Numbered from the stretch's first letter, positions 6,986 to 61,585 are shown. The stretch: 64,000 bases of DNA from an uncultured Alphaproteobacteria bacterium (GCA_947053455.1 CAMRSV010000001.1:177010-241009); one strand, 5' to 3'. Program-made: numbers and translations. The notes: a model not told the origin generated them from the letters alone.

Positions 6986-7017
6986 AAAAATCCCCGTTTC
7001 CGGGGATTTTGTTTTTT
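6986..7017. terminator. Bidirectional rho-independent terminator between the porin gene and the TPR gene
   Basis: The hairpin AAAATCCCCGTTTCCGGGGATTTT is followed by a T-run. Confidence 0.8.
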
Positions 7018-8005
7018 AGTTTAATTCTGAAATCAATCCTTCTAAACGTTCAACTGTTTCCGTATCATTTAGTGCGGTTGCAATTGTTCGTGCGGATTCC
7101 AAATCACTACGGGCGGCGGCGATGTTACCCAATTGCAGGTTCAATGCCGCAGATTTTTCAAAATAGCCCATTGCGCGTGCGGATTGCGCCTCACGTGCGT
7201 CCATTGTTGCAGTGCCCTGGATTTGTTCGGAAATAACGCGTACGGCTGATTCATAGTCACTGATTGCGGCCGCATAGTTACCAAGGGCGGTGTATGCCTC
7301 GGCACGTTCTGCATAAACCGACGGGTTAACAACGCCGTCTGGTCGTGCCAACGAATTTGTATAATCGGCAACCGCGCCATCCCAGTTCTTTAGCCACAGG
7401 TTTAATTGACCACGTTTTGCATACAGGTCGCGCAGTTGCAGTATGCTGTCCGGGTTTGATGCGACCGATGCCAGTGCGTTGTTTATATCGTTCAATGCAG
7501 CGTTATAGTCTTCTAATCTGGTGTTTAGTAACGCACGATCATAATATGCAACGCCATTGGTTGCATCGTTTTCAATCGCTGTGTTAAAGTCGTTTAACGC
7601 CGCACGGTAATTGCCCGATTGCATGTATATTTCACCACGCAGTATATATGCGTCGTTTGTTGCATTATTTGCCTCAATCGCGGTGGTAAGTTCCGCAATC
7701 GCGCCATCCAAATCCCCGTTTAGCATTTTCGATTTGCCAGAATTATAATAGTCGTTGCCCTGCATCAGGGTTTCTTCTGCAACGGGTGCATTTGTTTTTG
7801 TTAAAACGCCATGGCTGCGTCCCAGAATATAGAACGTTGCCGCGATAAAGAACAAAATTATAAACCAATATATATAAATCGACAGCGACCATGGGTTAAA
7901 GCATGGTTTGGCGGATTTGCATGGTGCCACGACCGGTTTTGCAGCCTGCGTCTTGGGGGCGCCACGTTTTGCCTTTGAATTTTTGGCTGTGGTATTTTTT
8001 TTCAT
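7016..8005 (-). CDS. Membrane-anchored tetratricopeptide-repeat protein
   Basis: It has a Lys-rich N-terminus, one TM helix and multiple TPR units (AYYDRALLNTRLEDYNAALNDINNAL and similar). Confidence 0.65.
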   Translation of the reverse strand: MKKNTTAKNSKAKRGAPKTQAAKPVVAPCKSAKPCFNPWSLSIYIYWFIILFFIAATFYILGRSHGVLTKTNAPVAEETLMQGNDYYNSGKSKMLNGDLDGAIAELTTAIEANNATNDAYILRGEIYMQSGNYRAALNDFNTAIENDATNGVAYYDRALLNTRLEDYNAALNDINNALASVASNPDSILQLRDLYAKRGQLNLWLKNWDGAVADYTNSLARPDGVVNPSVYAERAEAYTALGNYAAAISDYESAVRVISEQIQGTATMDAREAQSARAMGYFEKSAALNLQLGNIAAARSDLESARTIATALNDTETVERLEGLISELN

Positions 8006-8034
8006 AATAAAAACTCCCTTCCTTGAAATTAATA

Positions 8035-8730
8035 TTAGTGGGTTTTTAGTATTGCGTCAATATCTTTCTGTGGAATGCGGCGAATTTGTCCGGGGGCTAA
8101 ATCGCCAATTTCAATGTTGCCAAATGACACCCGGTGCAGTTTCTTTACCGGTGCACCCGCCGCGCGCAAGGCAATGCGGATTTCATTCTTTTTCCCTTCG
8201 GTTACGGTCACGCGCAAATCACCGTTTTTCATTATGGATATTTTCATGGGCTTGTATTTTATTCCATCAACCGTTATACCGCGCCGAACCAAATCCAAAT
8301 TTGACGTGTCGCCCCCAACGCGCGCAATATATGTTCGCGGTATTTCGGATGTTGGCAACGTTAGACGTCGTGCCGCGTCCCCGCTATTGGTCAACAGAAT
8401 CAGTCCCGTTGTTTTGAAATCCAGTCGTCCGATGTATTTCAAATGTCGGTATTTTTCAGGTATGACGTCATATATGGTTGGCCGCCCCATCGGGTCACGC
8501 GTTGTTGTCATTGTGTTTATTGGTTTGTTGAACGCAAATATTTCAATGTTTTTCGCGCGCCGTATTTCACGTCCGTCGACAAATACATGTGCCGTGTCGT
8601 CGACTAAAAATGCGGGCGTCGTGATGGTGACGCCGCCCACCGAAACGCGGCCGTCCGCTATCATTTGTTCGGCGCCGCGCCGTGATGCAACGCCGGCGTC
8701 TGCGATAAATTTTGCAATTCTTATATTCAT
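8035..8730 (-). CDS. Pseudouridine synthase, RsuA/RluB family (S4 domain plus catalytic domain)
   Basis: An S4 RNA-binding N-terminus (IAKFIADAGVASRRGAEQMIADGRVSV) is followed by the catalytic Asp motif IGRLDFKTTGLILLTNSGD. Confidence 0.8.
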   Translation of the reverse strand: MNIRIAKFIADAGVASRRGAEQMIADGRVSVGGVTITTPAFLVDDTAHVFVDGREIRRAKNIEIFAFNKPINTMTTTRDPMGRPTIYDVIPEKYRHLKYIGRLDFKTTGLILLTNSGDAARRLTLPTSEIPRTYIARVGGDTSNLDLVRRGITVDGIKYKPMKISIMKNGDLRVTVTEGKKNEIRIALRAAGAPVKKLHRVSFGNIEIGDLAPGQIRRIPQKDIDAILKTH

Positions 8731-9380
8731 TTGTTTATTTTCATTATAGCTACCGCCGCCGCCAGTTCCGCGCGCAGTATTGTGCGCCCCAGTGACATGC
8801 CCTGGGCGTGCGCCGCGTCCAATGCGGCAAATTCTGCATCGGAAAAACCGCCCTCGGGTCCGACAAGAATTGAATTTGCATTGATATTTGCCGTTAAATC
8901 GCGCCCGTACGCGGCGCGTTCGTCCGCAAATGCAAGTCGTGATAAATCCAAATCTGCAAATTTTACCGGTTGTGCTATTTCCGGTACGCTGTTTCTGTTT
9001 GATTGTTCGGCGGCCTCAATCGCGATTTTTTTCATGCGATTCCAGTTTATGTGGTGCGCGGTTGTGCGTTCTGTTATTACGGGGACAAATCGCGCCGTGC
9101 CCATTTGCGTTGCCATATTTATCAAATCATCGGTCTTTTTTATCGGTGCAAAATAAAGCGTTGCATGTCCCGACGGGTCGGTGTGCGTCGTTTGTGCCCC
9201 TATAATAAAGCGCCGCCCGTCGGCAGAAAGCACCGCGTTAAATTCACGCCCCGCCCCAAACGCCAGAAAGTTGTCAGTTCGCATAACGCGCCGCAGGTAG
9301 TGCGCCGCATCATCACCGGCCGGCAATTCCATGTTTTCATGCAAATCGTTTCCGATAAAGATACGTGGAATATTTTTCAT
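8727..9380 (-). CDS. rsmE: 16S rRNA (uracil1498-N3)-methyltransferase RsmE
   Basis: The RsmE/SPOUT C-terminal motif ILVGPEGGFS is present. The gene overlaps the preceding pseudouridine synthase gene by 4 nt. Confidence 0.8.
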   Translation of the reverse strand: MKNIPRIFIGNDLHENMELPAGDDAAHYLRRVMRTDNFLAFGAGREFNAVLSADGRRFIIGAQTTHTDPSGHATLYFAPIKKTDDLINMATQMGTARFVPVITERTTAHHINWNRMKKIAIEAAEQSNRNSVPEIAQPVKFADLDLSRLAFADERAAYGRDLTANINANSILVGPEGGFSDAEFAALDAAHAQGMSLGRTILRAELAAAVAIMKINK

Positions 9381-9438
9381 AATATTTTTTTAATTCCTGA
9401 TTTATAATTGGCTTTTTTTCTGATATAATCATAACACA

Positions 9439-11661
9439 ATGCCAGACAAGTTCAAGATTTTATCCGCCGGTGGAAAGGGCAAGGGCCTGAATATATTCAA
9501 GTCCAGCGCATATAAGGAACACGAACGTGTCCCAATGGCGCGCGAGTTCTGGATGCTGCGCTGGGCGATTGGGATATGGATTGCGTGCGCGTTGGCATTC
9601 GGATTTTCATTTGTGGCAGAGCATATCTGGCGCTATGGTTGGTCGCCGGCCACGGCACATTGGACAAAAATTTATCTGACAAATATGCTGATGACGGGCG
9701 GCTTGTCCGTCGTGGCGGAAATTCCCGCGTGGATTATGCGTTCCGTAATGCGAACTGATATGATGTGTATGGCGCCACTGATACCGATTGTTGCGTATTA
9801 TTTCATGTCGGACGGCGAATTGACCAAGGAGTTTAACCCCAACGCCAAGGACAAGTTTGAAGAAAAAACATCGCGCAAGGCGAACAAGGAAGATATTGAA
9901 AAAATGGGTCTGCTGAATGGGTTCATGATGGTTTTGGGGTATTTCAAGAAAAAGCCGCTGATGTTCAATGAATGTCTGTCGACGTTATGCGTGGCACCCC
10001 CCGGAACCGGTAAGACACAGGGTGTCGTTTTGCCGACTATTTTTGACACGACCGATGTTTCAATGATTATCAATGACCCGAAACCGGAATTGAAACAAAA
10101 ATCATCAGCATATCGTGCGTCAATCGGACCGACGTTTATCATGAATTGGGCGGGGCAAGATGACCCGGCGCGCGGAATATATTACCCATCGTGGAACCCG
10201 TTGTCGCCTGAACACGTCCCGTTTAATACAGAACAACGCGATTTGTACATTGATTCCATGTGCAAGGTGTTAATTCCGGACAACACTTCTTCATCAGCTG
10301 ACCCGCACTGGACTATTTCTGGTCGTGCGGCACTGTCTGGTATGGTGCAGTTCATTGTTTCCAAGGTAGAACGTGCCAAGGCGGACGACTATTTTTACGC
10401 ACGCATTCAATCCGGCGAATTTAACGCCGAAGATGCGGCGGTTCTTTCCGATTATTATTTATCAATGATGAATGACCCGAACGCATATGCGGCAAGTGCG
10501 CTGCTGGCGCGTGGGGAACTAAATGCGGCCAACTATGTCCATGTTGGTACTTGGGAAAATATTCCTGATGCGTGGGTTGGTCGCGAGGCGTCGCTTTCCA
10601 TGATTTTGGACTGGTTAAACGCGTCACAGATTGCCATTGCCCAGAATTTAGAGGAACGCCGTCGCCAAGGTGACCAGATGGTTATGATGGCCGATCCGAT
10701 GAAAGATTTGCTGCAAGGCGCAGTGGAAGAGGCGCGCCGCTATGCGTATGCGCATCGATCAATTTTGGAACTGACCCAGTTGGCGAACACCCCGGACAAG
10801 GAACGCGGCTCTATTTTGTCCACCGCAATGGCCGGGTTGTCGATATTCCGTAATGCGGCGGTTAAAAACCGCACCAGCCATTCGGATTTTCATTTTGCAG
10901 ATTTGCGTGGCATGATTGACCCGCGTGATGGCAAGATGAAACCGGTGACGGTCTATTTATCGATAAACATGGTTGATGCCCAGGCATTGAATCCAATTAC
11001 GGGTATATTTATCGAACTGATGTCAAATTTCCTGTTGGCAAATATTCCAAATCAGGTCGGGGCGAATGGCGAAAAAATGGGGCCATATCCTGTGTTGTTC
11101 GTGTTGGATGAAATGCCGAAAATGCAAAAACTTGAGGCTGTGATTCAAGGTCCAGACCTTGGGCGTGGACAATCGATTTCATATCTGATAATCGGCCAGG
11201 ATTTGCACCAGATTGCTGAAAAATATGGTAATGATGCGGCGGCAACTATCATTTCAACAACCGCGGCAAAAATTGTTCTGCGCCAAAATGACCCGGACAC
11301 CGCCACAAGATTTTCGAACATGATGGGCGAAAAGATGGAGAAAAAGAAAGAAAAGGGTCCCGACGGCAAGGAAGTTGAGGTGACAAAGAAAGAATTGCTG
11401 TTTACGCCTATGGACATTATGCGCCTGGATAAGAAAAAACAATTGGTTATATATCAGGGATGGTATCACCGACCGATTGAGGCCGACCATCAACCGGCAT
11501 GGCAGGATTCGCGTTTGTCCGGCTATATGGCCATGGGCGAGGCAGCGCCGCTGCCGGAATTTTTGATACCGTCGCATCATGCGATATTGGGTTATACGGG
11601 CACACCGCGCATTTATAATCCCATGACAGAAGAAATACGCGAACTTGCCCCATTGAAATAA
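9439..11661 (+). CDS. Type IV secretion or conjugative coupling protein (TraG/VirD4/TrwB family ATPase)
   Basis: It has two N-terminal TM helices, the Walker A LCVAPPGTGKTQGVVLPTIF, the Walker B VLFVLDEMPKM and the C-terminal TraG-D signature (YLIIGQDLHQIAEKYG, RQNDPDTATRFSNMMGEK). No other T4SS genes are in the window. Confidence 0.8.
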   Translation: MPDKFKILSAGGKGKGLNIFKSSAYKEHERVPMAREFWMLRWAIGIWIACALAFGFSFVAEHIWRYGWSPATAHWTKIYLTNMLMTGGLSVVAEIPAWIMRSVMRTDMMCMAPLIPIVAYYFMSDGELTKEFNPNAKDKFEEKTSRKANKEDIEKMGLLNGFMMVLGYFKKKPLMFNECLSTLCVAPPGTGKTQGVVLPTIFDTTDVSMIINDPKPELKQKSSAYRASIGPTFIMNWAGQDDPARGIYYPSWNPLSPEHVPFNTEQRDLYIDSMCKVLIPDNTSSSADPHWTISGRAALSGMVQFIVSKVERAKADDYFYARIQSGEFNAEDAAVLSDYYLSMMNDPNAYAASALLARGELNAANYVHVGTWENIPDAWVGREASLSMILDWLNASQIAIAQNLEERRRQGDQMVMMADPMKDLLQGAVEEARRYAYAHRSILELTQLANTPDKERGSILSTAMAGLSIFRNAAVKNRTSHSDFHFADLRGMIDPRDGKMKPVTVYLSINMVDAQALNPITGIFIELMSNFLLANIPNQVGANGEKMGPYPVLFVLDEMPKMQKLEAVIQGPDLGRGQSISYLIIGQDLHQIAEKYGNDAAATIISTTAAKIVLRQNDPDTATRFSNMMGEKMEKKKEKGPDGKEVEVTKKELLFTPMDIMRLDKKKQLVIYQGWYHRPIEADHQPAWQDSRLSGYMAMGEAAPLPEFLIPSHHAILGYTGTPRIYNPMTEEIRELAPLK

Positions 11662-11680
11662 TTAAAAATAAGCCGCCATT

Positions 11681-11986
11681 TTATAAATTAGGCACGCAAA
11701 TAATTGTCGCCATAAACACAATTATACATAATGATAATATATGCCCCGCCCAATGCAGGTAAGATGTGTATGGGTCGGCATAATTTTGTTGCATCATTCG
11801 GACAAAGAATCTGAAATGATTATCGCGGGCGCGCCGGTCGCTAAAATCCACCGAATATTTTTCGCCATCAATAAAGTTAAAAATAATTTGATATTTTGGA
11901 TTGGCGCCGTATATATTTTTACAATAAATAACGCATTTTGATACCCGCATTGTCCAATTATGCTGAAAAAGCCATTGTTTGGTCAT
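11681..11986 (-). CDS. Hypothetical small protein in an AT-rich stretch
   Basis: This is an ORF with a C-terminal hydrophobic segment in a region of about 35% GC. The longer track ORF (to 12145) would run across the repeat module, so the internal Met at 11986 was chosen. The evidence is weak. Confidence 0.3.
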   Translation of the reverse strand: MTKQWLFQHNWTMRVSKCVIYCKNIYGANPKYQIIFNFIDGEKYSVDFSDRRARDNHFRFFVRMMQQNYADPYTSYLHWAGHILSLCIIVFMATIICVPNL

Positions 11987-12018
11987 CTGCCCATCGCTTT
12001 GTTGAATATAAGAACAAA

Positions 12019-12123
12019 GACCGTCAGCAAGATGACGGTCGGGGTGTTGATAAATCAAACAACTAGTGATCCCGTTGCTTTCGACTTTCGCCTGTTGTAT
12101 GGCAACGGCACCCCGACCATTTA
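12019..12123. repeat. Partial copy of the GGTCGGGGTG repeat module
   Basis: GGTCGGGGTG at 12037-12046 and its reverse complement CACCCCGACCAT at 12109-12120 flank a 62-bp core. An extra hairpin GACCGTCagcaagatGACGGTC is also present. The architecture matches modules inside the repeats at 19228-19323 and 30972-31047. Confidence 0.6.
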
Positions 12124-12413
12124 AGATCAGGGATATTAACGACAATAACCATAGGAGCGTTATGCTAAAGCGTCCGGTTATGCCGAGTTGTTTGGGCTTA
12201 TCAAGGCCCCGAACACCGGATCCCGCCGATGTTCAATTTCACTATATCAGGAAAAAATGATATTTGCAACAAATTCCGGGCATTTATCGCAAATTCGCCA
12301 CCGCGACCGGCATGTTTCCACATGCCTATTTGCTTGTTTGCCCCCCCCCTTTGTTCGGGGGTTCTTCGTCCCTATATTAAAAATTAAAACCGACACAAGG
12401 TCGGCTTGAATTT

Positions 12414-12490
12414 TGGTAGCGGGAGAGGGACTTGAACCCCCGACACGTGGAGTATGATTCCACTGCTCTAACCAGCTGAGCTACCCCGCC
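12414..12490 (-). tRNA. tRNA-Met (anticodon CAT; possibly the initiator or lysidine-Ile isoacceptor)
   Basis: A cloverleaf was folded by eye. The anticodon arm is GTGGA-ATCATAC-TCCAC, the T-loop is GGTTCAAGTCC and the 3' end is CCA. A hairpin with a T-run follows downstream. Confidence 0.75.
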
Positions 12491-12763
12491 AATGCACCGC
12501 ATTATAACAGACATTTTTTTAAATGCAAGAAACAATTCGTTTGATTTTGCGACCCACCCCGGTTATTATTAATTTGACGTCGGGTATTCCGGCGTTGGGA
12601 TTCAACACCCATTGTATGCGCGTCTTGGCGGACGTTAAATGCTCCTGCAAGTGGCAGGAGTGCGATGCCATATATTGAAAACATCGCGCTATTGCGCATA
12701 CGATAGTGTTGAAACTCCTGCCGTTTTATTTAAAACGGCTTTAATTATTTCAACACAAGGAGT

Positions 12764-13684
12764 ATGCAAATGTACAAACATTGGAAATTTCGCGAACAGG
12801 TCGCGAAAACAGCATCAATATTTTTTAGGTCGAAGATAAAGCGCAGATATGTGCGCGATAAAATAAGATTTCATGATTTTATCCAATCTGTTGGTGTGCA
12901 GGATGTGCCTTTGAAAAAGTATGCAAGGCCAATCGATATCGCGTTCTGTTTTGATGGGCGGGGTGCAAATCTGGCCGCGGTGGCGGTGCGATCGCTGGTT
13001 GATGCGGCGGCGGGGCTTTGCAATTATGCAGTATATTGCGTTGTTGACGATACTGTAACCGCTGCGCAGAAACGCACGATTGAGAAAATGGTGGCGCATA
13101 CCGATTCCACGATGACTTTTTTGCCGGCAAATCATGATTTTGACGCGGCGCGCCGCGCCGGATGGCCGGTTTCAATATGGTATCGAATGATGCTGCCGAA
13201 ATTGCTGCCAGATGTCGAGAAAATAATTTATGCGGATATTGATACAATATTTTTTCGTGATTTGGTGGAACTTGCGAGGATTGACATGGGTAAGAACCTG
13301 GTCGCGGGTGTGCCTGCGCATGGGAACAAATATATGAATTCAGGCTTTCTGGTTTTGAATTTGCAGCAAATTCGCGCGGAAAAACTTTATGAAAAATGGG
13401 TTGGGGTTGCGCAAATTAAAAACTATCGCCATCCAGATCAGGATTTGTTGAATTTTACCACACGTGGCCGTGCAATTTATTTGCCCCTGCGGTATAATTT
13501 TCAGACATATATGGGACGCCGGGTATTCAAACTATATTCTACCCGTGAATTAGAGGATTTACGTCATAACCTGGTCGTTATGCATTATTCAAATTGGATT
13601 AAGCCGTGGAGTGCCCAGGGACAGCGCCCCGTGTTTTCCGAATATTGGTGGGATGTGGCAAAAAAGACCGGACTGTATAAGTAA
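12764..13684 (+). CDS. Glycosyltransferase family 8 (LPS alpha-1,2/1,3-glycosyltransferase-like, RfaJ/WaaJ-type)
   Basis: GT8 signatures are present. These are the DxD motif YADIDTIFF, NSGFLVLNL and the C-terminal HYSNWIKPW (the H-x-x-G/N-x-x-KPW motif). Confidence 0.75.
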   Translation: MQMYKHWKFREQVAKTASIFFRSKIKRRYVRDKIRFHDFIQSVGVQDVPLKKYARPIDIAFCFDGRGANLAAVAVRSLVDAAAGLCNYAVYCVVDDTVTAAQKRTIEKMVAHTDSTMTFLPANHDFDAARRAGWPVSIWYRMMLPKLLPDVEKIIYADIDTIFFRDLVELARIDMGKNLVAGVPAHGNKYMNSGFLVLNLQQIRAEKLYEKWVGVAQIKNYRHPDQDLLNFTTRGRAIYLPLRYNFQTYMGRRVFKLYSTRELEDLRHNLVVMHYSNWIKPWSAQGQRPVFSEYWWDVAKKTGLYK

Positions 13685-13776
13685 TATACAGTCCAGGATT
13701 TTGTTCATATAATTAATTATTGTGTTGTTTAATGAATGTTGTTGCATTATTTAGTGTTATGTTATATATTTTTCGT

Positions 13777-14343
13777 ATGAAAAAAATCGTGGCAATTTTG
13801 GGTGGTTTAGTATGTGTGGTGTGTGTAGTCCCGGCGCATGCGTTTAACCCGTTTATGGGTGAAAATGAAAACCAGATTGCCGTAAATATAGGCCAGGGCG
13901 TAAACAGCGGATTCATTATTCCGCCACCTGAACAATTTGTGCCGTTTTATATGTTGCCGAATATTCAATATTCCCAGCCCACAACGTTTTTCAAGTTGCC
14001 CGCGCGCCAGTCGTTGAATTTTGGTGAAACGGTTGGTATGGCGAAAAAATACGGCTGGGATTGGCCGGATTATTCAATCCCTATGATTTTTGCGTCGGGT
14101 GACGTGGCGCTGCTGTATGGGTGCAATTGGTACCTGTCTGCAGGTGCGGGTGTGGGGCTGCAGGCAAAACAGAATGAACGCCTGGGGGCGAAATTATTGT
14201 TCCAGTTCAAATTGATTGCCGGATACAGATTTACCAAACATTGGGGCGGTGAATTTTTTATTCAACACTTTTCCAATGCCAATACGGCTGATGAAAATAA
14301 TTCCTATGCCTTTTATGGTCTGGGGGTGACGTACAGTTTTTAA
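13777..14343 (+). CDS. pagL: Outer-membrane lipid A 3-O-deacylase, PagL-like
   Basis: It has a signal peptide and is about 170 aa mature, ending in a C-terminal Phe. The His/Ser motif HFSNAN matches the PagL HxSNG active-site region. Confidence 0.55.
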   Translation: MKKIVAILGGLVCVVCVVPAHAFNPFMGENENQIAVNIGQGVNSGFIIPPPEQFVPFYMLPNIQYSQPTTFFKLPARQSLNFGETVGMAKKYGWDWPDYSIPMIFASGDVALLYGCNWYLSAGAGVGLQAKQNERLGAKLLFQFKLIAGYRFTKHWGGEFFIQHFSNANTADENNSYAFYGLGVTYSF

Positions 14344-14345
14344 TA

Positions 14346-15005
14346 TTAAGCAGTCTTGTCGTGTGCGGTGCAAATTCCGACAACGGGGCATGACGCACAT
14401 TGTGGGCGCAGTGCTTTGCAAGTATAGCGGCCATGGAGAACCATTACGTGATTTACCATTGCATGATATTTTTTTGGAATGATTTGCAGTAATTTTTCCT
14501 CTACCTTTTCAGGCGTATTGGCATCAACCCCAACCCAGCCGTACCGGTGCGCGTTGCGGAATACGTGTGTGTCGACCCCGATATTCGGCATTCCCCACAT
14601 AACGTTCATAATAACATTTGCGGTCTTTTGCCCAATGCCCGGCAGTTTCATTAGTTGTTCGCGGTCATGATATTTTTTCGGAAATTTGTAGTCCGTTTCA
14701 TTTGCACCGTCTTCATTCATCAATTGCGCCGAAAGTCTCATAATACTGCGCGCCTTGTTGTTAAAAAACGATATGACACGAATATACTCTTTTAATCCGT
14801 CTTCCCCCAGCGCCAGCATTTTTGCGGGTGTGGGCGCGACGCGGAATAGGGCGGGCGTCACCTCATTCACCTTTTTATCGGTTGCCTGGGCGGACAAAAT
14901 CACTGCCACTGCGAACGTGAATTCGTTCGTGGAATAGAGTTCGGACCGAATATTCATATCAACTGTTTTGGGTACGGCCTTAAAATACTGCTCTGGTGTC
15001 ATCAT
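14346..15005 (-). CDS. nth: Endonuclease III (DNA glycosylase/AP lyase)
   Basis: The HhH-GPD motif LPGIGQKTANVIMNVMWGMPNIGVDTHVFR is present, as is the C-terminal 4Fe-4S cluster C-x6-C-x2-C-x5-C. Confidence 0.92.
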   Translation of the reverse strand: MMTPEQYFKAVPKTVDMNIRSELYSTNEFTFAVAVILSAQATDKKVNEVTPALFRVAPTPAKMLALGEDGLKEYIRVISFFNNKARSIMRLSAQLMNEDGANETDYKFPKKYHDREQLMKLPGIGQKTANVIMNVMWGMPNIGVDTHVFRNAHRYGWVGVDANTPEKVEEKLLQIIPKKYHAMVNHVMVLHGRYTCKALRPQCASCPVVGICTAHDKTA

Positions 15006-35683: not shown

Positions 35684-35983
35684 ATGGATATGGAAACACT
35701 GATGGCCCAGGCAGCCGAGTTGCAAAACAAAGTCGCAAATGCCCAAGAAGAATTGGCAAAAACCACGGTAAAGGGTATAGCGAACGCCGGCGCATGCATT
35801 GTTGAAATGACGGGTAAATATGACCTGGTGAACATTACACTGCGCGAAGATGCATTGTCGGGCGGTGCGGCGGCGGTATCTGAAATAGTAGCCGATGCAT
35901 TCCGCGATGCAAAGGCCAAGGCCGACGCGGTTATCGACCGCGTAATGGGCGATGCCACGGCCGGAATGCCGATGCCAATGTAA
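35684..35983 (+). CDS. ybaB: Nucleoid-associated protein YbaB/EbfC
   Basis: The 99-aa product matches the YbaB family (AGACIVEMTGKYDLVNITLRED, AFRDAKAKADAV, C-terminal GMPMPM). Confidence 0.85.
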   Translation: MDMETLMAQAAELQNKVANAQEELAKTTVKGIANAGACIVEMTGKYDLVNITLREDALSGGAAAVSEIVADAFRDAKAKADAVIDRVMGDATAGMPMPM

Positions 35984-36068
35984 CAAATTGATAAAATGTA
36001 ACCGCTTAAGAGCGGTTACGCGTATCCATATTTTATATAGAGCAAAAAATATACAGGGCATAAGAATC

Positions 36069-37904
36069 ATGTGGTTATCAAAACGAATCAAGCACGATAT
36101 AGATTCCAGCAAGATTATATCACTTGATGTGTTTGACACATTGTTGTCGCGTCGTTTCATGCATCCATATGATGTATTCGGCTTTATTGAACAAGTATGT
36201 CAATGTCCCGGATTCAAGGATGCGCGTATTGTGGCAGAATATAATGCCCGGCAAAAATATAAAAAAGATGTCAATCTGGATGAGATTTATAATGTAATAT
36301 CGGTACAATATGCGCATTTAAAATCTTTTGAATTGGCAACCGAAATGAACTGTATGTATGCAAATCCAATCGGATATGAAATATTGCAATACGCCAAGAA
36401 AGCGGGAAAAGATGTAATTTGTACATCGGATACTTATTTTTCAAAAGATTTTATAATCGGTGCCCTGGCAAAGAACGGAATCATTAACCTGCCGGTAAAC
36501 ACTGATAATATTTTTGTTAGCAACGAACATAACGCCAGAAAATCCGACGGTTTGTTATTTGACTGCGTCATCAACACAACCGGCGTTTTGCCGAGAGATA
36601 TTGTCCATTTTGGCGACAGTCAACACTCGGACTATGTCATGCCACGCAAACGCGGAATGCGCGCCCACAAAATCCCATATGTAATCAAAGAGTTTTCCGC
36701 AGCCACAGAAAACAAAAAATTTGTTAACCTATATGCGGAATTAAACAATAATCCGTTGACAAGTTTATTTGTGGGAATGTATGCCAAACAATGGTGGTGT
36801 TCCAAGCACACAGGCCGGAAATTAGATTTTTGGTATTCTGTGGGTTATGCCATTATTGCCCCGTTTATTTACGGGTATACACAGTTTATCCGGCAAAATC
36901 TGCCGACCGAAACACCATGTGATTTATTGTTTGTTGCCCGTGATGGATTTTTGCTAAAAAAATGTTTTGACGCATTTAATTCAAACTGTGACATTAATAC
37001 ACATTATGTTTATGCCCCCAGACTGGTAAAAATACTGGGCGATTTAGATTACAGCAATAAATCGGAATACCTAGATATAATAATAAACTATTATTCAAAC
37101 ATAAATGGCACATTTAAGCGCGCGTTTGAAAACAAGACAATCGATTTTCGGGAAAAACAACAATTATTCACAGATAAACAAAACCTTATTGCGCCCCAGG
37201 CCAGGGAACTAAAATCACGATATATAGAGTATGCAAAGACAATAAAATTACATTCCGACAATGTTATGATGGTTGATTTGGCAAGCAGCGTCATGTCTTC
37301 GCAGCGAATACTTAACGATGTGTTGCCCCAACCGATAAAATATGGTTTTTATTTGGGTACAAATGGTGATTTGCCATACCGGGCGTATATGGACAGACAT
37401 GAAAATCAAACTCTTGATATGGGGCCTATTTATGAATTACTGGTATCTTCGCCCGAATTCCCAATCAAAGATTTTTCGGACAAACGGCCTGTATATAACG
37501 AAGACAATCTTTTAGAAAAACATGATAAACAGTTGTTCATCAAATCAATGGACGGTGTTTTGGATTATATCCAGGATTTAAAAAACAGCGGACTTTGCGG
37601 CCAATTTCATACATTACCCATGAAAGTTTTTGCAAAGTATCAGAACAATTTTTGGCGTTTGTTGTCACGTGTTGATTTGAAACAGTTGCAACAGGCAAAC
37701 TGGGCTTATGACGCCCTAAACAACAATCATGCAAACATGTACCAGTATTATCGTGCCACCGTTGCACGAAAATCCGAGGGCGCATTCAAAAAATCACTTT
37801 ATAGGTTTCGCGGTTCTTTTTTGAAATTTATTATAAATCTTGTTCCGGTCAAAAGGTGGCGGCATGCCATGCGGCGGCATTGTTTTAGTAATCGCAATGT
37901 CTGA
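36069..37904 (+). CDS. Large HAD-superfamily hydrolase fusion protein (N-terminal HAD phosphatase-like domain plus about 400-aa unknown domain)
   Basis: HAD motif I reads ISLDVFDTLL (DxDxT). Candidate motifs II (ICTSDT) and IV (HFGDSQHSD) are present. The C-terminal two thirds match no recognised family. Confidence 0.55.
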   Translation: MWLSKRIKHDIDSSKIISLDVFDTLLSRRFMHPYDVFGFIEQVCQCPGFKDARIVAEYNARQKYKKDVNLDEIYNVISVQYAHLKSFELATEMNCMYANPIGYEILQYAKKAGKDVICTSDTYFSKDFIIGALAKNGIINLPVNTDNIFVSNEHNARKSDGLLFDCVINTTGVLPRDIVHFGDSQHSDYVMPRKRGMRAHKIPYVIKEFSAATENKKFVNLYAELNNNPLTSLFVGMYAKQWWCSKHTGRKLDFWYSVGYAIIAPFIYGYTQFIRQNLPTETPCDLLFVARDGFLLKKCFDAFNSNCDINTHYVYAPRLVKILGDLDYSNKSEYLDIIINYYSNINGTFKRAFENKTIDFREKQQLFTDKQNLIAPQARELKSRYIEYAKTIKLHSDNVMMVDLASSVMSSQRILNDVLPQPIKYGFYLGTNGDLPYRAYMDRHENQTLDMGPIYELLVSSPEFPIKDFSDKRPVYNEDNLLEKHDKQLFIKSMDGVLDYIQDLKNSGLCGQFHTLPMKVFAKYQNNFWRLLSRVDLKQLQQANWAYDALNNNHANMYQYYRATVARKSEGAFKKSLYRFRGSFLKFIINLVPVKRWRHAMRRHCFSNRNV

Positions 37905-37965
37905 ATATATGCGGCGCGGCAAGCCACGCAATAAAATCCGGCAAATCATGAACAAAGGATAGCAA

Positions 37966-38628
37966 ATGAAATTTTTGCAAAAAAAACTATCATCAAACAG
38001 AAAACACGTACGCGTTCTGCTATTTGGAATAAGAGTTTTTAGTTACAAGGCAAAGAACACCGCTGAAAATGTCGTTGGCAACGGAAATGTTGTACAATTA
38101 CCCAAGAATTCCATGATTACTGTTTATATTCGCGGCAATAACAATCGCGTGATTGTCGAAGAGACTACGCACAACCCAGGATTTGCCATAACCCTTTTCG
38201 CCGGGACAGAACCGGTGAACAATTGTACCGTGCATATTGGAAAAAATTTTAGTGTTGGATCCGGCGAAATCCGCATATGCGAAGACAACACGATAGTTGA
38301 AATCGGCGACGATTGTATGTTTAGTGACGATATCAAGCTTTTCGCATCGGATACACACACAATACTGCGGGACGGAAAAGTTTCAAACATTGGCAAACAT
38401 ATTAAAATCGGCAACCATGTATGGTTGGGGCATGGGGCGACGGTGTTGAAAAACACAACAATCCCAGATAACAGTATAGTGGGCGCACGTTCTGTTGTCG
38501 TGGGTATGATACGCGAAAACGGGTCGATTATTGCCGGAAATCCTGCGCGCGTTATTCGCGATGGTGTAAATTGGGACAGACGCTGTCCGAAACAATATAT
38601 GGCGCAAGAGGACGTATCGGCCAATTAA
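37966..38628 (+). CDS. Hexapeptide-repeat (left-handed beta-helix) acyl/acetyltransferase
   Basis: Hexapeptide repeats are present (IGNHVWLGHGATVLKNTTIPDNSIVGARSVV). This is typical of polysaccharide O-acetyltransferases. Confidence 0.75.
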   Translation: MKFLQKKLSSNRKHVRVLLFGIRVFSYKAKNTAENVVGNGNVVQLPKNSMITVYIRGNNNRVIVEETTHNPGFAITLFAGTEPVNNCTVHIGKNFSVGSGEIRICEDNTIVEIGDDCMFSDDIKLFASDTHTILRDGKVSNIGKHIKIGNHVWLGHGATVLKNTTIPDNSIVGARSVVVGMIRENGSIIAGNPARVIRDGVNWDRRCPKQYMAQEDVSAN

Positions 38629-38900: not shown

Positions 38901-38974
38901 TGGTGCCCTAAGCAAGAATCGGACTTGCGACTCGTCCTTACCAAGGACGTGTTTTACCACTAGACTATTAGGGC
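38901..38974 (-). tRNA. tRNA-Thr (anticodon GGT)
   Basis: The cloverleaf is GCCCTAA...CGTCC-TTGGTAA-GGACG...GCAAG-TCCGATT-CTTGC...TTAGGGC-A-CCA. There is one C·A mismatch in the D stem. Confidence 0.7.
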
Positions 38975-55140: not shown

Positions 55141-55605
55141 TTATTTTACGATAAATGAAATCTCGTTTGTTTTTGTTTCAAAGCAATGTGATGCGGCCTC
55201 GTTCTCAAAACCGTTCACGCGCAGTGATGATACCCATTTTGGCACGGCCGTCGTGAAATATGCGCAGTCACTCTCGCTTAAGCCGACAAGTGTTATTTCA
55301 AATGATTTGCCGTCAACCGCAGATATTATCGACCATGCGTTTGTACCCAATGGTGCCGCGCCATTTTGTACCGCGTCTGACCCGGACTTTATCAGATAGT
55401 CAATCGACACGCCGTCATAAGAACCGCCTGTCTCCATCAGCATTTTTACGTCATTTGCGATTTCTTCAAGACGCGAAGATGCAATTTGACGACGCGTTGT
55501 ATTTTTTACCGTTTCATACATCTTGTATGCGCCCAATATCATCATGCCCGATATTGCAAGGACACCGACCACTTCTATTAAAGAACGCCCGCATTCTGAT
55601 TTCAT
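55141..55605 (-). CDS. Type IV pilin/pseudopilin-like protein (prepilin-type N-terminal signal)
   Basis: The N-terminus MKSECG|RSLIEVVGVLAISGMMILGAY has Gly at -1, Glu at +5 and a hydrophobic helix, which is the class III signal pattern. It abuts the OmpA-like gene and lies downstream of dnaX. Confidence 0.6.
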   Translation of the reverse strand: MKSECGRSLIEVVGVLAISGMMILGAYKMYETVKNTTRRQIASSRLEEIANDVKMLMETGGSYDGVSIDYLIKSGSDAVQNGAAPLGTNAWSIISAVDGKSFEITLVGLSESDCAYFTTAVPKWVSSLRVNGFENEAASHCFETKTNEISFIVK

Positions 55606-57274: not shown

Positions 57275-57562
57275 TTATTTCAGGTTTTCAACGAATTCCG
57301 GGAACGGTTCTTCTTCGTCTGCGGCATCAACCGGTTGTTCTGCGATTGGTGTTTTGTCGGCCGGCGTGCGTGTCGAATCAATCTTTCCCTGTTCGCTGCT
57401 GACCATGCGGCCATAATGTTCGGCCGACTGCAGCAGGCGTTCGCGGTCAATTTCATCCGCGGTTTGACGTGCCTGGTCAATAAGTTGTTTGCGTTTTTGG
57501 CGCCATTTGTGACACCGCTGAATCATCATCCCGACAGAGGATTGGTTTTTTTTGTTTTGCAT
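57275..57562 (-). CDS. DUF4167-like small basic protein conserved in alphaproteobacteria
   Basis: It has an Arg/Lys-rich N-terminus and the LLQSAEHYGRM block, which resembles the DUF4167 motif YLQHAEHYFR. The C-terminus is acidic. Confidence 0.45.
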   Translation of the reverse strand: MQNKKNQSSVGMMIQRCHKWRQKRKQLIDQARQTADEIDRERLLQSAEHYGRMVSSEQGKIDSTRTPADKTPIAEQPVDAADEEEPFPEFVENLK

Positions 57563-57709
57563 GTTTTTTCTTTGTTAACAGGAAATATATTTAATGCCGG
57601 ATTATACCGCCATCGTTTCTTTAACAGTCGCAATAATAGTTTATCGGAAAACCAATTGCAATATTTTTTTTCAATTGCTATTCTACAAATATGTAGGAGG
57701 GAAGCCATA

Positions 57710-59068
57710 TTGCATTATTCGCGTGGGAATTTTTTATTGCAGGCGCTGCTGGCATTGTCGGTGGTGTTTGCAATTGTGCCGTTTCTGACGATGCGAATGA
57801 CCAACAGTGCATCCGATGCAAAAATGTTTTCCGCCACGCAACAGGCGAATGTGGCAGCCACAGCCGCACGAATTTTTATCCGTGAAAACGCAAAAAATAT
57901 TCCGTACGATACCGTTGTTGTTGCAGGTGACGAGTTTGGTGATTTGTTGGAACCTTATGGATTGCCATTGGGGTTTGTACCGCGGACAAGTCTGGGACAG
58001 AATATCGCGCTTGTCATCGAAAACGACAATGGCGAAATTTCTGCACATTTGGAATTGACGGGTGGGAATTTAAGTCGGCTTGCGAGAGCCGAACTGGCGC
58101 GGCGCATTGGTTTTTATGCGGTGCCGACGGCAGATGGCGTTAATGTTGGAATTGCGCTGGAGAATATGTATTCAGATATTGTGCGTCGTAATGAACCAGA
58201 TGTCGACAATAACGAATTTTTAACCAATTTGGACATGGGGGGATTTGTGTTTGAGGACGCCGGCCGTGTTTTTGCCGCCCGCGGTGATTTTGAAACGGGC
58301 GTGTTTGACACATTAGCGGTGACCGGCGTAGAAAACGGCCGAAAAATAAGAAATACAATTAATCGGATGGCCGCAACAAAAACAGTTTTCCAAAGTAAAA
58401 CCGGCGAGGCTGCACTATCTTTGACGCGTGGCACCCTAAATGCAGCCACAGTCGGGGCACGTACGGTTTCAAAATTTGGCGATACGGGCAATTTTACCGG
58501 GCGGGTGGCATCGGTCTATGATTTTTCAATGACGGCCGGGCGTACCAGTTTTTCCGGACCAAAAGATTGGAAAGTGCGCGGAAATATGATTGCGGACAAA
58601 ATAAACTTTTCCGTCGATAGAATAGATATATCATCATCTATAAATGCTGCCCGTGGCCAGGATGTTTACATATACACCGACGAATTGGAATACAGCGCCC
58701 GCAGCGGTATAGAGGCGTCTTATTTGGCGGTGTCAAATATCACGTTGCGCGACCAGACGTCAGATGCGTTGCTGCGCGGGGAAGATGGTGCGGTCGTGAT
58801 TGACATACGTCCGGCCGATGTGTCTGTTTTGCCGGATGTTTTGCTCGATTCCATAGACAATGGTTCTTTTAAAATTATTTCGCGCCCATCGGCCGATGAT
58901 GGTAAAACCGTTGACTGTAAAAGTATTATTTCCGCAATTGGCGGTGTGGTATATAATCAAAAATCGCTGGCGCAGAATATAATATGCCAGTATGTATTTT
59001 GGCAGCGTTTGGAACAAAGAATAGATATTAAACAATGCTTGATGGCCGGCGGGACAAATTGTGACTAG
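57710..59068 (+). CDS. Large pilin-like/pseudopilin-like protein, paralog 1 (prepilin-type N-terminus)
   Basis: It has a TTG start with an AGGAGGG ribosome-binding site. The N-terminus (M)HYSRG|NFLLQALLALSVVFAIVPF is followed by about 420 aa with no family assigned. It shares the L-x-M-GG-x block (NLDMGGFVFEDAGRVF) with the next two genes. Confidence 0.5.
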   Translation: MHYSRGNFLLQALLALSVVFAIVPFLTMRMTNSASDAKMFSATQQANVAATAARIFIRENAKNIPYDTVVVAGDEFGDLLEPYGLPLGFVPRTSLGQNIALVIENDNGEISAHLELTGGNLSRLARAELARRIGFYAVPTADGVNVGIALENMYSDIVRRNEPDVDNNEFLTNLDMGGFVFEDAGRVFAARGDFETGVFDTLAVTGVENGRKIRNTINRMAATKTVFQSKTGEAALSLTRGTLNAATVGARTVSKFGDTGNFTGRVASVYDFSMTAGRTSFSGPKDWKVRGNMIADKINFSVDRIDISSSINAARGQDVYIYTDELEYSARSGIEASYLAVSNITLRDQTSDALLRGEDGAVVIDIRPADVSVLPDVLLDSIDNGSFKIISRPSADDGKTVDCKSIISAIGGVVYNQKSLAQNIICQYVFWQRLEQRIDIKQCLMAGGTNCD

Positions 59069-60266
59069 AACGACGATTTTTTTCAATGAAACACTTGGCG
59101 CCAGCATGCTGGAGGTGATTCTTGCGCTGGCGATTGTGGCTGTGGCATCACCCTTTGTATACAATAAAATAATACAGACGAACCATGATATTGAAAACAT
59201 GGTGCGTGCCCGTGATATTGCCGCGTTGCGCAGTCCTGTCTTGAATTTTGTTCGTATAAACCAGGACAAGTGGCCCGAAACAGCCCAGATTAAACTGTCG
59301 GATGCGGAATTGGATGAAATATCTGACACTGCCACGGCGGCGTTTGTTGACAAGTATTCTGTCCGTGGGGCGGCCGTGGCGGATGTTTATATTTCGTTTG
59401 ATGCGGAAAATCCGGTTCGTGCAAACCGTATTGTGCGCTATATCGGTGCTGATGCGGCTGTTGTTGGTGACGACGGCGTGGCGTATTCCGACACGTGGGC
59501 GGTGGCGGCTCCTGATTTTAAGACTGGAAACATTATATACAGAATATCGCGTGCGACTGCGGATGACGACAAGACAAAATATTTGCATCGCGCATCGTCT
59601 GGCGATGACGGCCTTAACATCATGATGCGTGATTTGCGAATGGGTGGATATAATGTATTGAATGTTGGACGGGTTGTGGCGTCATCCGCCAAGGTGGGCG
59701 ATGTGTCAACGTATTTTGTGGCCTCTGATGATGTTATGGCGAACAATGCCTATTTTTCAAATGGCGCAAATATGGATGGTTCAAATGTTTCGGTCGGCGA
59801 AATGCAGGTTTCGGGTGATATAACCGGCTTTAGAAATATTTATGCAGACAATTTGAACGGTGGCGCATTTACAACACGGGGGCGTGTTATTGCAGATCGT
59901 GCAACAGTGACAAATTCAGTTAACGTTGGCGGAAATTTTTCTTTGAAATCAAGCACTACGCGTACAATTAGCGGTTTTACCACCATAGAGGCGCATTCGG
60001 TTGCGACGCCATATATTTCAGTGGAAGAAATGACTTTTATTGAAAAGGTGGGACTTACCGTGTCTGGGGAATTGATGGTATCGACAACGCCGCCATTAAA
60101 GATAGGCAGCTGGGTCTTTCCGTCAACCAGCGCGCCGCGCTTTGCTGATTTTTCATTATCACGCGCCGAGATTCCAGATACGCCCACCACAGACGAGTTT
60201 GATATATTGTTTCACGCCGGATGGCGTGCATATAATCCAGATAATCTAGAGGGGACGCAACTATGA
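59061..60266 (+). CDS. Large pilin-like/pseudopilin-like protein, paralog 2
   Basis: It has a GTG start overlapping the upstream stop. The N-terminus NETLG|ASMLEVILALAIVAVASPFV has Gly at -1 and Glu at +5. It carries the shared block DLRMGGYNVLNVGRVV. Confidence 0.55.
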   Translation: MTRTTIFFNETLGASMLEVILALAIVAVASPFVYNKIIQTNHDIENMVRARDIAALRSPVLNFVRINQDKWPETAQIKLSDAELDEISDTATAAFVDKYSVRGAAVADVYISFDAENPVRANRIVRYIGADAAVVGDDGVAYSDTWAVAAPDFKTGNIIYRISRATADDDKTKYLHRASSGDDGLNIMMRDLRMGGYNVLNVGRVVASSAKVGDVSTYFVASDDVMANNAYFSNGANMDGSNVSVGEMQVSGDITGFRNIYADNLNGGAFTTRGRVIADRATVTNSVNVGGNFSLKSSTTRTISGFTTIEAHSVATPYISVEEMTFIEKVGLTVSGELMVSTTPPLKIGSWVFPSTSAPRFADFSLSRAEIPDTPTTDEFDILFHAGWRAYNPDNLEGTQL

Positions 60267-61585
60267 AAAAAGCGCGCACCATGTTTTCCATGACAGGTTG
60301 CAAAACCTCGCAACGTGGCAGTATGTTGGTTGAAATGCTGCTGTCGGTGGCGTTGGCGGCAATAATTATTCCATTTGTTTTCAGGTATCAGCATAACGTA
60401 ATTGCCCGCGCAAAAAATATTGAGGTCGCACAGCGAATGGAAACGGTTCAAACTGCGCTGGAACGGTATATTGTCGAAAATCGTGCCTCTTTGCTAAATA
60501 CAGTTGGGCGTAATATAACGCGTGTTCAGCTTGCCGATTTGGTGCCCTATGGTCTGCCGGAAGATATATTGAATTCATCGGCCGAATATCAATTGCGTAT
60601 TTTGAAATCAAATGATGTTGGCACTCAGTCAACCCTACAGGGGGTGGTTGTAATGTCCGATGCCAATATCACGCCGCTGCGCACGCGTGAAATTGTAATG
60701 ATGGGCGGAAATAATATGGGATTTATTGAGGGGCGGCATGCATATGGTGCATTTGGCGCATGGCGTTCAGATACGGTTGACCTGGGACTCGGCGGCGCCC
60801 AGGGCATTGTGGGTTCAACCGGTGTTAATCGCGATAACGCGCTGTATTTATGGCGTGTACCGTCAAATGACGCGGACGATGCGACAATGATGTCGGCGTT
60901 AAATCTGGGTGGCCATGATATAGAAAACGCCAGTTTCTTTGATGTTTCCAATGTTAATTTTAGCGAAAATATGCATTCGGGGACACTTGTTGCGTCCAAT
61001 ATTATTTTTCAAAATCGCACGACAATAGACACCACGTTTGAAACAAAATCGGCGCGCGTGGCGGGTGCATTGTCGGCTGATTCGCGCACAATGGAAATTT
61101 CAGGGGCGCTAAAGTTGGATGATTTGGGAAAGTTTTCTAGTTTTTCGGTCGAAGATTTGTGGGTCGGCAATCTATCTCTTTCGGGGCTGACGGTAAACAG
61201 TGATGAAGATGTCGCGAACTTGAAAATAAATCAGACCTTGGATATGACCGGGGGGCGGATAAGCGCGCTGTACGCAACCGTTGGTTTTTCCGGTTCGATA
61301 ACACCGCGTCTGGTTGTAACTAACCTTATTGAAGATTCAATTAACCCGGAATATTTTTGGGATGCAGACTGGCGCGCGGCACATTTTTTTGATGTGTCTT
61401 TTCCGAATCTGAACGATATGGCGACCCGCGCCGTAGCCCGCGAAGGTGATAAATCCACCGCATCATCGCAGTTGTTCGGTGCGGTTGTTGCAAACAAAAA
61501 TGCAACCGCGGCGGATTTTATGAACGCATTGTTAGAAATTGAATCACGCGTTCGTGCGAAATATCGCCTGTTGAATTTGGAATAA
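60263..61585 (+). CDS. Large pilin-like/pseudopilin-like protein, paralog 3
   Basis: The N-terminus QRG|SMLVEMLLSVALAAIIIPFV has Gly at -1 and Glu at +5 and is clearly similar to paralog 2. It carries the shared block ALNLGGHDIENASFF. It overlaps the upstream gene by 4 nt. Confidence 0.55.
   Translation: MKKARTMFSMTGCKTSQRGSMLVEMLLSVALAAIIIPFVFRYQHNVIARAKNIEVAQRMETVQTALERYIVENRASLLNTVGRNITRVQLADLVPYGLPEDILNSSAEYQLRILKSNDVGTQSTLQGVVVMSDANITPLRTREIVMMGGNNMGFIEGRHAYGAFGAWRSDTVDLGLGGAQGIVGSTGVNRDNALYLWRVPSNDADDATMMSALNLGGHDIENASFFDVSNVNFSENMHSGTLVASNIIFQNRTTIDTTFETKSARVAGALSADSRTMEISGALKLDDLGKFSSFSVEDLWVGNLSLSGLTVNSDEDVANLKINQTLDMTGGRISALYATVGFSGSITPRLVVTNLIEDSINPEYFWDADWRAAHFFDVSFPNLNDMATRAVAREGDKSTASSQLFGAVVANKNATAADFMNALLEIESRVRAKYRLLNLE

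Follow-up and report, generated by a model that had tools for sequence, protein, structure and literature searches.

The locus described here raises the question of why a gene for a type IV coupling protein (T4CP) should stand close to a tRNA gene with no secretion or conjugation genes around it. It lies in a 64,000-nt stretch of DNA from an uncultured Alphaproteobacteria bacterium (GCA_947053455.1, CAMRSV010000001.1:177010–241009; hereafter the window, with positions counted from its first nucleotide), where a 740-aa T4CP is encoded at 9439–11661. A preliminary description of the locus, made from the sequence alone, had taken this gene, an AT-rich small open reading frame (ORF), a repeat module and a tRNA-Met gene together as the likely remnant of an integrative or conjugative element (ICE), and had named a retained or domesticated coupling ATPase and an inactive relic as other options. 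We find instead that the T4CP gene is a single-copy, vertically inherited core gene of Candidatus Enterousia, a gut alphaproteobacterium of the order Rs-D84 with a genome of < 1 Mb, and that it is very likely functional and not a mobile relic. Its core status and conservation bear out the option of a retained or domesticated ATPase, and the data support domestication apart from any mobile element or VirB operon.

A genuine but divergent coupling protein

The features of the gene are as follows.

9401–9429, plus strand: promoter-like site TTTATA-17-TATAAT with TG, within the 58-bp divergent intergenic region (consensus scan only)
9439–11661, plus strand: T4CP gene, VirD4/TraG/TrwB family, 740 aa (ORF, Pfam, AlphaFold2, Foldseek)
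9562–9618, plus strand: transmembrane (TM) helix 1, residues 42–60 (Kyte–Doolittle mean 2.0 over 19 residues)
9994–10017, plus strand: Walker A motif APPGTGKT, residues 186–193 (G189 and K192 invariant in the alignment)
10375–10545, plus strand: 57-residue insertion in the all-alpha domain, residues 313–369 (A-x-A-(N/D)-D-Y-F ... YY..M ... N-Y-V-x-V-G-T-W)
11095–11112, plus strand: Walker B motif LFVLDE, residues 553–558 (VLFVLDE from 552; D557 invariant in the alignment)

Three Pfam families recognized the product well above their cut-offs (PF02534, 162.1 bits against 20.1; PF12696, 72.8 against 22; PF10412, 66 against 20.5), and its domains follow the order N-terminal membrane anchor, nucleotide-binding domain, enlarged all-alpha domain. 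The family assignment and the Walker A, Walker B and C-terminal motifs quoted in the preliminary description (APPGTGKT, VLFVLDE and NDPDTATRF, the last at residue 617) were confirmed. As for the two TM helices that had been claimed, the segment at residues 42–60 is strong and the second, at residues ∼107–124, is a weaker hydrophobic segment; the AlphaFold2 model places helices at 23–66 and 112–132. Residues G189, K192 and D557 are invariant across 12 T4CP sequences spanning 31–83 % identity. When the model (pLDDT 77.5, pTM 0.68) was compared with the PDB using Foldseek, the best match was Cagbeta (8dol, E 2e-17), followed by TrwB (1e9s/1gl7, E ∼1e-12 to 1e-11, TM-score to target 0.70–0.76), whilst a PDB sequence search returned H. 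pylori Cagbeta as its sole match. As in TrwB of R388, Cagbeta and the MPF-T T4CPs, the protein runs from TM anchor through Walker A, all-alpha domain and Walker B to TraG-D_C.

None of the NCBIfam T4CP orthologue models was reached by the protein: the best, conju_CD1115, scored 136.5 against a cut-off of 250, followed by IncP TraG (108 against 674), the VirD4 models (94 against 728 and 68 against 681) and TraD (44 against 521). Judged by these model scores, it lies outside every named curated T4CP group (VirD4, IncP TraG, Ti TraG, F-type TraD, CD1115); likewise, it is not an orthologue of VirD4 as measured by the NCBIfam equivalog scores. The protein is thus a genuine but divergent T4CP. Membership of a defence system was considered and set aside, as PADLOC gave only a weak P-loop match (mad8, 25.6 bits) and PHROGs none. 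The promoter-like site ends 10 nt before the ATG, and would on this consensus match give a leaderless or near-leaderless mRNA.

A conserved core gene of Candidatus Enterousia

A scan of species-representative genomes (one per species) returned at least 457 confirmed matches to the T4CP. The best 80 of these, at 66–81 % identity, come from gut, rumen or faecal metagenome-assembled genomes, and those that bear a genus name are all Candidatus Enterousia, a widespread and uncultured lineage hosted by humans of non-industrial populations, ruminants, horses, chickens and termites. The identical 740-aa protein is also encoded on a 362-kb contig of GCA_964017585.1 and on several metagenome contigs. 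NCBI taxonomy lists Candidatus Enterousia under Alphaproteobacteria incertae sedis, and the GTDB order Rs-D84 includes it (Begmatov et al., 2025; PMC12306168). Genomes of this order measure ∼0.75–1.0 Mb, are devoid of amino-acid, nucleotide and lipid synthesis pathways and of respiration, and have been predicted to support an obligate partner-dependent lifestyle (PMC12306168). In a database of 5.8 billion proteins, > 1500 clusters match the T4CP, and the best 120 of these are at least 77 % identical to it.

The genes to the left of the T4CP gene in the window are the following.

7016–8005: TPR gene
8035–8730: rsuA-like gene
8727–9380, minus strand: rsmE (16S rRNA methyltransferase; Pfam PF04452), divergent neighbour of the T4CP gene

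ORFs were called and clustered in all fetched loci, ∼88 of which, from ∼80 species-level genomes, are of the Enterousia type. Across these the T4CP is 66–83 % identical, and its ORF is full length in every locus that holds the whole gene. The order on the left is TPR protein, RsuA-like protein, RsmE (opposite strand) and T4CP, with rsmE immediately preceding the T4CP gene in ∼86 of the 88. On the right, at least eight arrangements occur: a lipoprotein gene and LpoB (37 loci), IF2–NusA (∼10), a porin-like gene and a sigma factor (eight), and several others. In the first of these (locus L015, 12256–14277, and 36 more) the T4CP gene is followed 0–35 bp on by a same-strand gene for a lipoprotein of 400–430 aa and then by LpoB, an order that is probably ancestral and was lost in the species of the window. 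The lipoprotein (cluster c10) belongs to no family and the next protein (c11) is LpoB by TIGR02722 (118.6 bits against 110.55); the two had been considered as lipoproteins of a type IV secretion system (T4SS), and on these grounds were treated as housekeeping neighbours.

Median identity to the window protein was 74 % for the T4CP, compared with 63 % for RsmE, 59 % for RsuA, 66 % for the TPR protein and 55 % for a BamB-like protein, and the T4CP ranked above each of these in all paired comparisons (44–75 pairs each). It was level with the sigma factor (76 %) and below only Der (80 %). The preliminary description had suggested a check for foreign composition; the T4CP gene has the GC content and codon use of the window (GC 0.487 and GC at third codon positions, GC3, 0.545, against gene means of 0.480 and 0.495), its codon-usage divergence is among the lowest, and only the 101-aa ORF considered below deviates. 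Given the fixed synteny on the left, the core-like composition, a conservation exceeding that of housekeeping neighbours and the invariant Walker residues, the gene is neither a relic nor an ICE remnant. The same description had held that vertical inheritance would make the gene core and not mobile, and vertical inheritance is what we observe.

Descent from VirB/D4 systems and an orphan subfamily

In a plasmid collection the best relatives of the T4CP, at 33–36 % identity, are found in Erythrobacter aureus (NZ_CP031358) and Sphingosinicella (NZ_CP035502), on megaplasmids of these Sphingomonadales that also encode a MobA/MobL relaxase; each closes a complete VirB2–B11 operon. A representative library of 1.84 billion proteins yielded 4127 matches. 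The closest relative that is not an orphan, P0130 (39 % over 602 residues), comes after VirB4 ... VirB8–VirB9–VirB10–VirB11, and a second, P0131, directly after VirB8–B11; both proteins are metagenomic. As judged by sequence similarity, the ancestry of the 740-aa protein is that of the VirD4 of an MPF-T VirB/D4 system, since the closest relatives of known context that have secretion genes (33–39 %) all end VirB operons. P0131 (L102, 4578–8087; L103, 1055–4564) is 1169 aa in length and has a weak Pfam match to an intein domain (Hom_end_hint).

At ∼31–50 % identity a number of orphan relatives were found, namely P0123 (L011), P0124 (L012/13), P0129 (L094), P0132 (L100), P0133 (L095) and P0168 (L101). 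In the fetched loci of these chromosomal orphans (L011, L012, L094, L095, L100 and L101) no VirB gene is present near the T4CP gene. According to the AlphaFold2 model and the alignment, the helical region of the window protein (residues 289–478) holds an extra 57-residue insertion, modelled confidently (pLDDT ∼89–93), which all orphan members share and which neither P0130 nor the plasmid T4CPs of Erythrobacter and Sphingosinicella possess. Its motif, A-x-A-N/D-D-Y-F ... Y-Y ... N-Y-x-x-x-G-T/S-W, is strongly conserved across the orphans, and on this alignment the insertion is a signature of their subfamily. A DotL-like affinity of distant relatives of 770–820 aa was considered and rejected on the PDB sequence search, which gave Cagbeta alone.

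The 740-aa protein accordingly belongs to an undescribed subfamily of orphan T4CPs descended from VirB/D4; a literature search found no paper on such a subfamily, on reduced genomes with orphan T4CPs or on the pentapeptide–T4CP pairs described below. Unlike the plasmid MPF-T T4CPs, which are operon-terminal and accompanied by a relaxase, its gene stands alone beside a chromosomal rsmE and is vertically inherited, and unlike both these and P0130 it carries the strongly conserved insertion. It resembles RvhD4 of the rvh T4SS, an analogy already drawn in the preliminary description, in that the reduced genome of a host-dependent alphaproteobacterium has retained a T4CP by vertical inheritance. 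In the Rickettsiales, virD4 stays within a virB8-9-10-11-D4 operon; in contrast to RvhD4, no Enterousia-type or orphan T4CP gene is adjoined by a VirB gene in any of ∼95 loci.

Search for a partner secretion system

The statement that no relaxase, VirB or Trb gene is nearby held. Among the main ORFs of the window (short ORFs being covered in part), Pfam detected no VirB or Trb gene, no relaxase and no integrase, the families found being housekeeping ones only (MutS, TruB, S15, sigma factor, IleRS, MetRS, MreB, GidA, Der, PNPase, GyrB, RecF, DnaX, LpxD, a MacAB–TolC set and others). The flanks that were searched amount to 1.8 Mb from ∼95 loci and sample ∼380 of ∼900 gene families (∼40 % of the repertoire). 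Here tblastn with VirB2–B11 and MobA from both plasmids found only the T4CPs and two trivial P-loop matches, and no MobA/MobL homologue occurs in the window or these flanks. The adjacency of virB11 and virD4 is kept in none of the ∼95 loci, six deep orphan lineages included. These results show an absence of linkage in the sampled DNA, which is not proof of absence from the genome. Neighbouring clusters that had been considered as T4SS candidates are, as judged by inspection of the sequences alone, ThrRS, PheRS, YidC, KefB and PPDK.

When the VirB11 of the nearest VirB-linked relative was compared with the large protein database, the 120 best matches ranged from 92 % down to 39 % identity and belonged to Holosporales, Dongiaceae, Telmatospirillum and similar taxa, with small member and contig counts. 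No abundant gut VirB11 lineage is present among these 120 (at least 39 % identity), and in none of them does the longest contig agree in length with that of an Enterousia T4CP cluster (832583, 697490, 666891, 651111 and others). Because Enterousia T4CPs form > 1500 clusters, a co-inherited VirB11 of at least 39 % identity should have crowded this list.

The tRNA junction and the sRNA-Xcc1 module

The features to the right of the T4CP gene are listed below.

11681–11986, minus strand: low-GC putative 101-aa ORF, starting 42 nt downstream of sRNA-Xcc1
12010–12040, minus strand: terminator-like hairpin and T-run overlapping the sRNA-Xcc1 3′ end (consensus scan only)
12029–12118, minus strand: sRNA-Xcc1-family RNA (Rfam RF02221; covariance model, full-length)
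12387–12407, minus strand: terminator-like hairpin directly past the tRNA 3′ end (consensus scan)
12414–12490, minus strand: tRNA, anticodon CAT (Met by ARAGORN), its 3′ end facing the sRNA-Xcc1/ORF module
12764–13684: GT8 gene (Pfam)
13720–14343: PagL gene (Pfam)

The tRNA-Met, GT8 and PagL genes were as previously described. The repeat module built on GGTCGGGGTG is also present, albeit as an inverted repeat: GGTCGGGGTG and CACCCCGACC, at 12037–12046 and 12111–12120, form the closing stem of the sRNA-Xcc1 RNA. The latter matches RF02221 over model positions 1–87 of 87 with 55.5 bits, a small margin over the gathering score of 53 (E 3e-7 for the whole window), and a consensus scan places a promoter-like site upstream of it. 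Further sRNA-Xcc1-like copies, ∼75 % identical to that of the window, occur in other Enterousia species, in loci L067 (6151–6236) and L045 (606–695).

For the AT-rich small ORF the low GC was confirmed (GC 0.363 and GC3 0.382, > 2 standard deviations below the window genes), and its limits were corrected to 101 aa at 11681–11986 on the minus strand. A longer frame of 154 aa, which runs through the RNA, was rejected because a conspecific strain (L002), in which the 101-aa reading is called as a gene, has a 7-bp deletion that disrupts it; the strain comparison shows very few substitutions over the ORF. Hydropathy indicates a C-terminal hydrophobic helix, with a TM segment from residue 83. Neither Pfam, NCBIfam, PADLOC nor PHROGs gave a match to the ORF, and a search of the 5.8 billion proteins returned no homologue; it may be regarded as a putative cargo gene downstream of sRNA-Xcc1.

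In the integron cassette that is most widespread in Xanthomonas the RNA precedes symE (bioRxiv 10.1101/2025.06.18.660453), and in APSE phages it precedes an ORF6N protein gene (bioRxiv 10.1101/2020.03.17.996009). As in both of these, sRNA-Xcc1 in the window lies directly upstream of a small same-strand ORF, here compositionally foreign; unlike both, the ORF has no homologue and is neither SymE nor ORF6N. It further differs from the Xanthomonas cassette in lying beside a tRNA in a reduced chromosome with no recognized integron, no search for IntI or attC having been made.

The junction of T4CP gene, small ORF, tRNA and GT8/PagL genes exists only in the window's own species (L001–L005). In L067 the block of sRNA-Xcc1, tRNA-Met and PagL is found left of the TPR gene, beyond the TPR–RsuA–RsmE triplet; there the RNA adjoins the orthologue of this tRNA-Met and precedes a 97-aa ORF that differs from the one in the window. 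As this block is on the other side of the triplet, the adjacency of T4CP gene and tRNA results from a lineage-specific rearrangement. A direct-repeat copy of the tRNA 3′ end had been suggested as a mark of integration; no second copy of the 26-nt 3′ end is present in the 64 kb with up to three mismatches, nor are there relevant direct repeats in 7000–14500. The sRNA-Xcc1 and 101-aa ORF look like a small, variable RNA-plus-cargo module at the tRNA that is separate from the T4CP gene. The idea that the tRNA serves as an integration hot spot may hold for this module, but not for the T4CP gene, whose junction with it is species-specific.

Explanations for the orphan coupling protein

The T4CP gene, AT-rich ORF and repeat would, on the reading first put forward, be a decayed ICE or mobilizable element inserted at the 3′ end of tRNA-Met. 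The tRNA 3′ end does face the region and the composition of the 101-aa ORF is foreign; integron cassettes, phages and islands are the usual carriers of sRNA-Xcc1, and members of the T4CP family are typically found on conjugative elements. The T4CP gene, however, is linked to rsmE and not to the tRNA, which it meets in the window's species only, and the sRNA-Xcc1/tRNA-Met/PagL block of L067 lies beyond the TPR–RsuA–RsmE genes. In addition, the window holds no att-like repeat of the tRNA end; its Pfam-scanned ORFs include no integrase or relaxase, and the flanks, to which only the relaxase query was put, yielded none; the composition of the T4CP gene equals that of core genes and its conservation exceeds that of its housekeeping neighbours. 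Such an origin is very improbable, and the locus illustrates that a lone T4CP gene beside a tRNA does not suffice to diagnose an ICE remnant. Loss of function along with a T4SS, with decay yet to come, would agree with the lack of partner genes in the window ORFs and the flanks. An inactive relic is nevertheless scarcely credible for an ORF that is full length in ∼88 loci from ∼80 species-level genomes, has ATPase motifs invariant down to ∼31 % identity and is more conserved than RsmE, RsuA, TPR and BamB-like proteins in each of 44–75 paired comparisons, and this in genomes of < 1 Mb with a coding density of 81–94 %, where pseudogenes do not accumulate (PMC12306168).

Greater weight attaches to the possibility that a complete chromosomal T4SS, VirB-type (rvh-like) or other, is scattered elsewhere in the genome with the T4CP as its sole coupler, supplying a partner or host cell with effectors or DNA. 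T4CPs are known to act only with a T4SS, the Rickettsiales, which are likewise reduced and host-dependent, keep dispersed T4SS genes, and the close relatives of known context are all VirB-linked; moreover, only ∼40 % of the gene repertoire was sampled, and dependence on a partner cell has been predicted for Enterousia (PMC12306168). On the other hand, the virB11–virD4 adjacency shown by every VirB-linked relative is found in 0 of ∼95 loci, no abundant VirB11 lineage at least 39 % identical to that of the nearest VirB-linked system appears among the best 120 matches, and the open-access Rs-D84 genome paper reports no T4SS in its main text. We would give a dispersed T4SS appreciable, if less than even, odds. 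Our preferred explanation, with a probability of roughly 0.5, is that the T4CP works without the ancestral linked VirB machinery, using either another type of channel or a very divergent one encoded elsewhere.

Several points weigh against this preference. We know of no T4CP that works without a T4SS channel. The VirB11 search, which also relies on a word prefilter, is blind to anything less than ∼39 % identical to the query, so a more divergent VirB11 or a T4SS lacking VirB11 would escape it. With ∼380 of ∼900 families sampled, VirB4/B6/B8–10 genes may be dispersed elsewhere in the genome, as may the genes of a different class of T4SS. The VirB-linked P0131 possesses a divergent version of the insertion, so the insertion predates the orphan state and is no proof of a new function, and a rough neighbour-joining tree did not group all orphan members in one clade. 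Finally, the main text of the Rs-D84 description names neither a T4SS nor a T4CP gene (PMC12306168), which is silence and not absence.

By analogy with its family, the N-terminal helices of the protein would hold it in the inner membrane, and it would form a ring like that of TrwB or Cagbeta, with the all-alpha domain and its 57-residue insertion binding a macromolecular substrate, either protein or DNA, and ATP being used to hand this substrate over to, or push it across, the envelope. We infer its oligomeric state, ATPase activity, substrate and partner apparatus in this manner. A T4CP as tightly conserved as a sigma factor in a genome of < 1 Mb is very likely central to dealings with the partner. 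The gene and its diagnostic motif also provide a handle on whether Enterousia inject or exchange macromolecules, and on whether a T4CP works outside a classical T4SS.

Candidate partners

In three of the deeper loci (L094, 8772–10001; L100, 9006–9998; L101, 225–1439) a gene for a pentapeptide-repeat protein ends at or overlaps the start of the T4CP gene. The protein has 330–409 aa, with two repeat blocks and a long charged tail that ends K/R-rich. The same pair is probably present in L095 (2–436), where the upstream gene is cut, and by tblastn no pentapeptide-repeat gene occurs in the Enterousia flanks or the window. From its sequence and apparent translational coupling in these branches, this DNA-mimic-like protein could be a substrate or regulator of the T4CP. 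More broadly, and only as a tentative and rather doubtful proposal, the whole VirD4-derived, insertion-marked subfamily, whose confirmed matches (at least 457) take in essentially all sampled Candidatus Enterousia, would have been domesticated in Alphaproteobacteria as a stand-alone core membrane translocase for which no VirB channel is needed. If so, the stand-alone T4CP could be the inner-membrane motor of a new route of macromolecule export or import in partner-dependent gut bacteria.

Type IV filament genes were seen near some T4CP genes. In the Enterousia locus L054 (16660–21368), two such genes are found 5–9 kb downstream of the T4CP gene, one for a 545-aa GspE/PilB-like ATPase and one for a GspF/PilC-like protein of 375 aa. 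A prepilin peptidase gene is directly downstream in L095 (2690–3394) and 9 kb upstream in L100 (483–1220), and a pilin-like gene is 43 bp upstream in L011 (9503–9958). Such genes near orphan T4CPs may reflect chance in compact genomes or a functional link.

Other features of the window

At 57335–61585 on the plus strand are three overlapping ORFs (577, 401 and 440 aa) without a Pfam family. Each opens with a leader of the type IV prepilin kind (G|ASMLEV..., G|SMLVEM... and G|NFLLQA..., respectively) and continues with a hydrophobic helix, so that the products resemble giant pilins or pseudopilins. Across dnaX from them, at 55141–55605 on the minus strand, is a pilin-like ORF of 154 aa with a weak NCBIfam match to a prepilin-peptidase-dependent protein. 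Type IV pili are not reported for the lineage in the main text of the published Rs-D84 description (PMC12306168). Beside a tRNA-Thr gene (38901–38974), the region 35952–38628 contains a 2-kb low-GC stretch, with an ORF of 650 aa (no Pfam family; GC 0.383, > 2 standard deviations below the window genes) and a hexapeptide-repeat transferase gene. Both of these are unique among the fetched loci and may represent a small acquired surface-modification islet.

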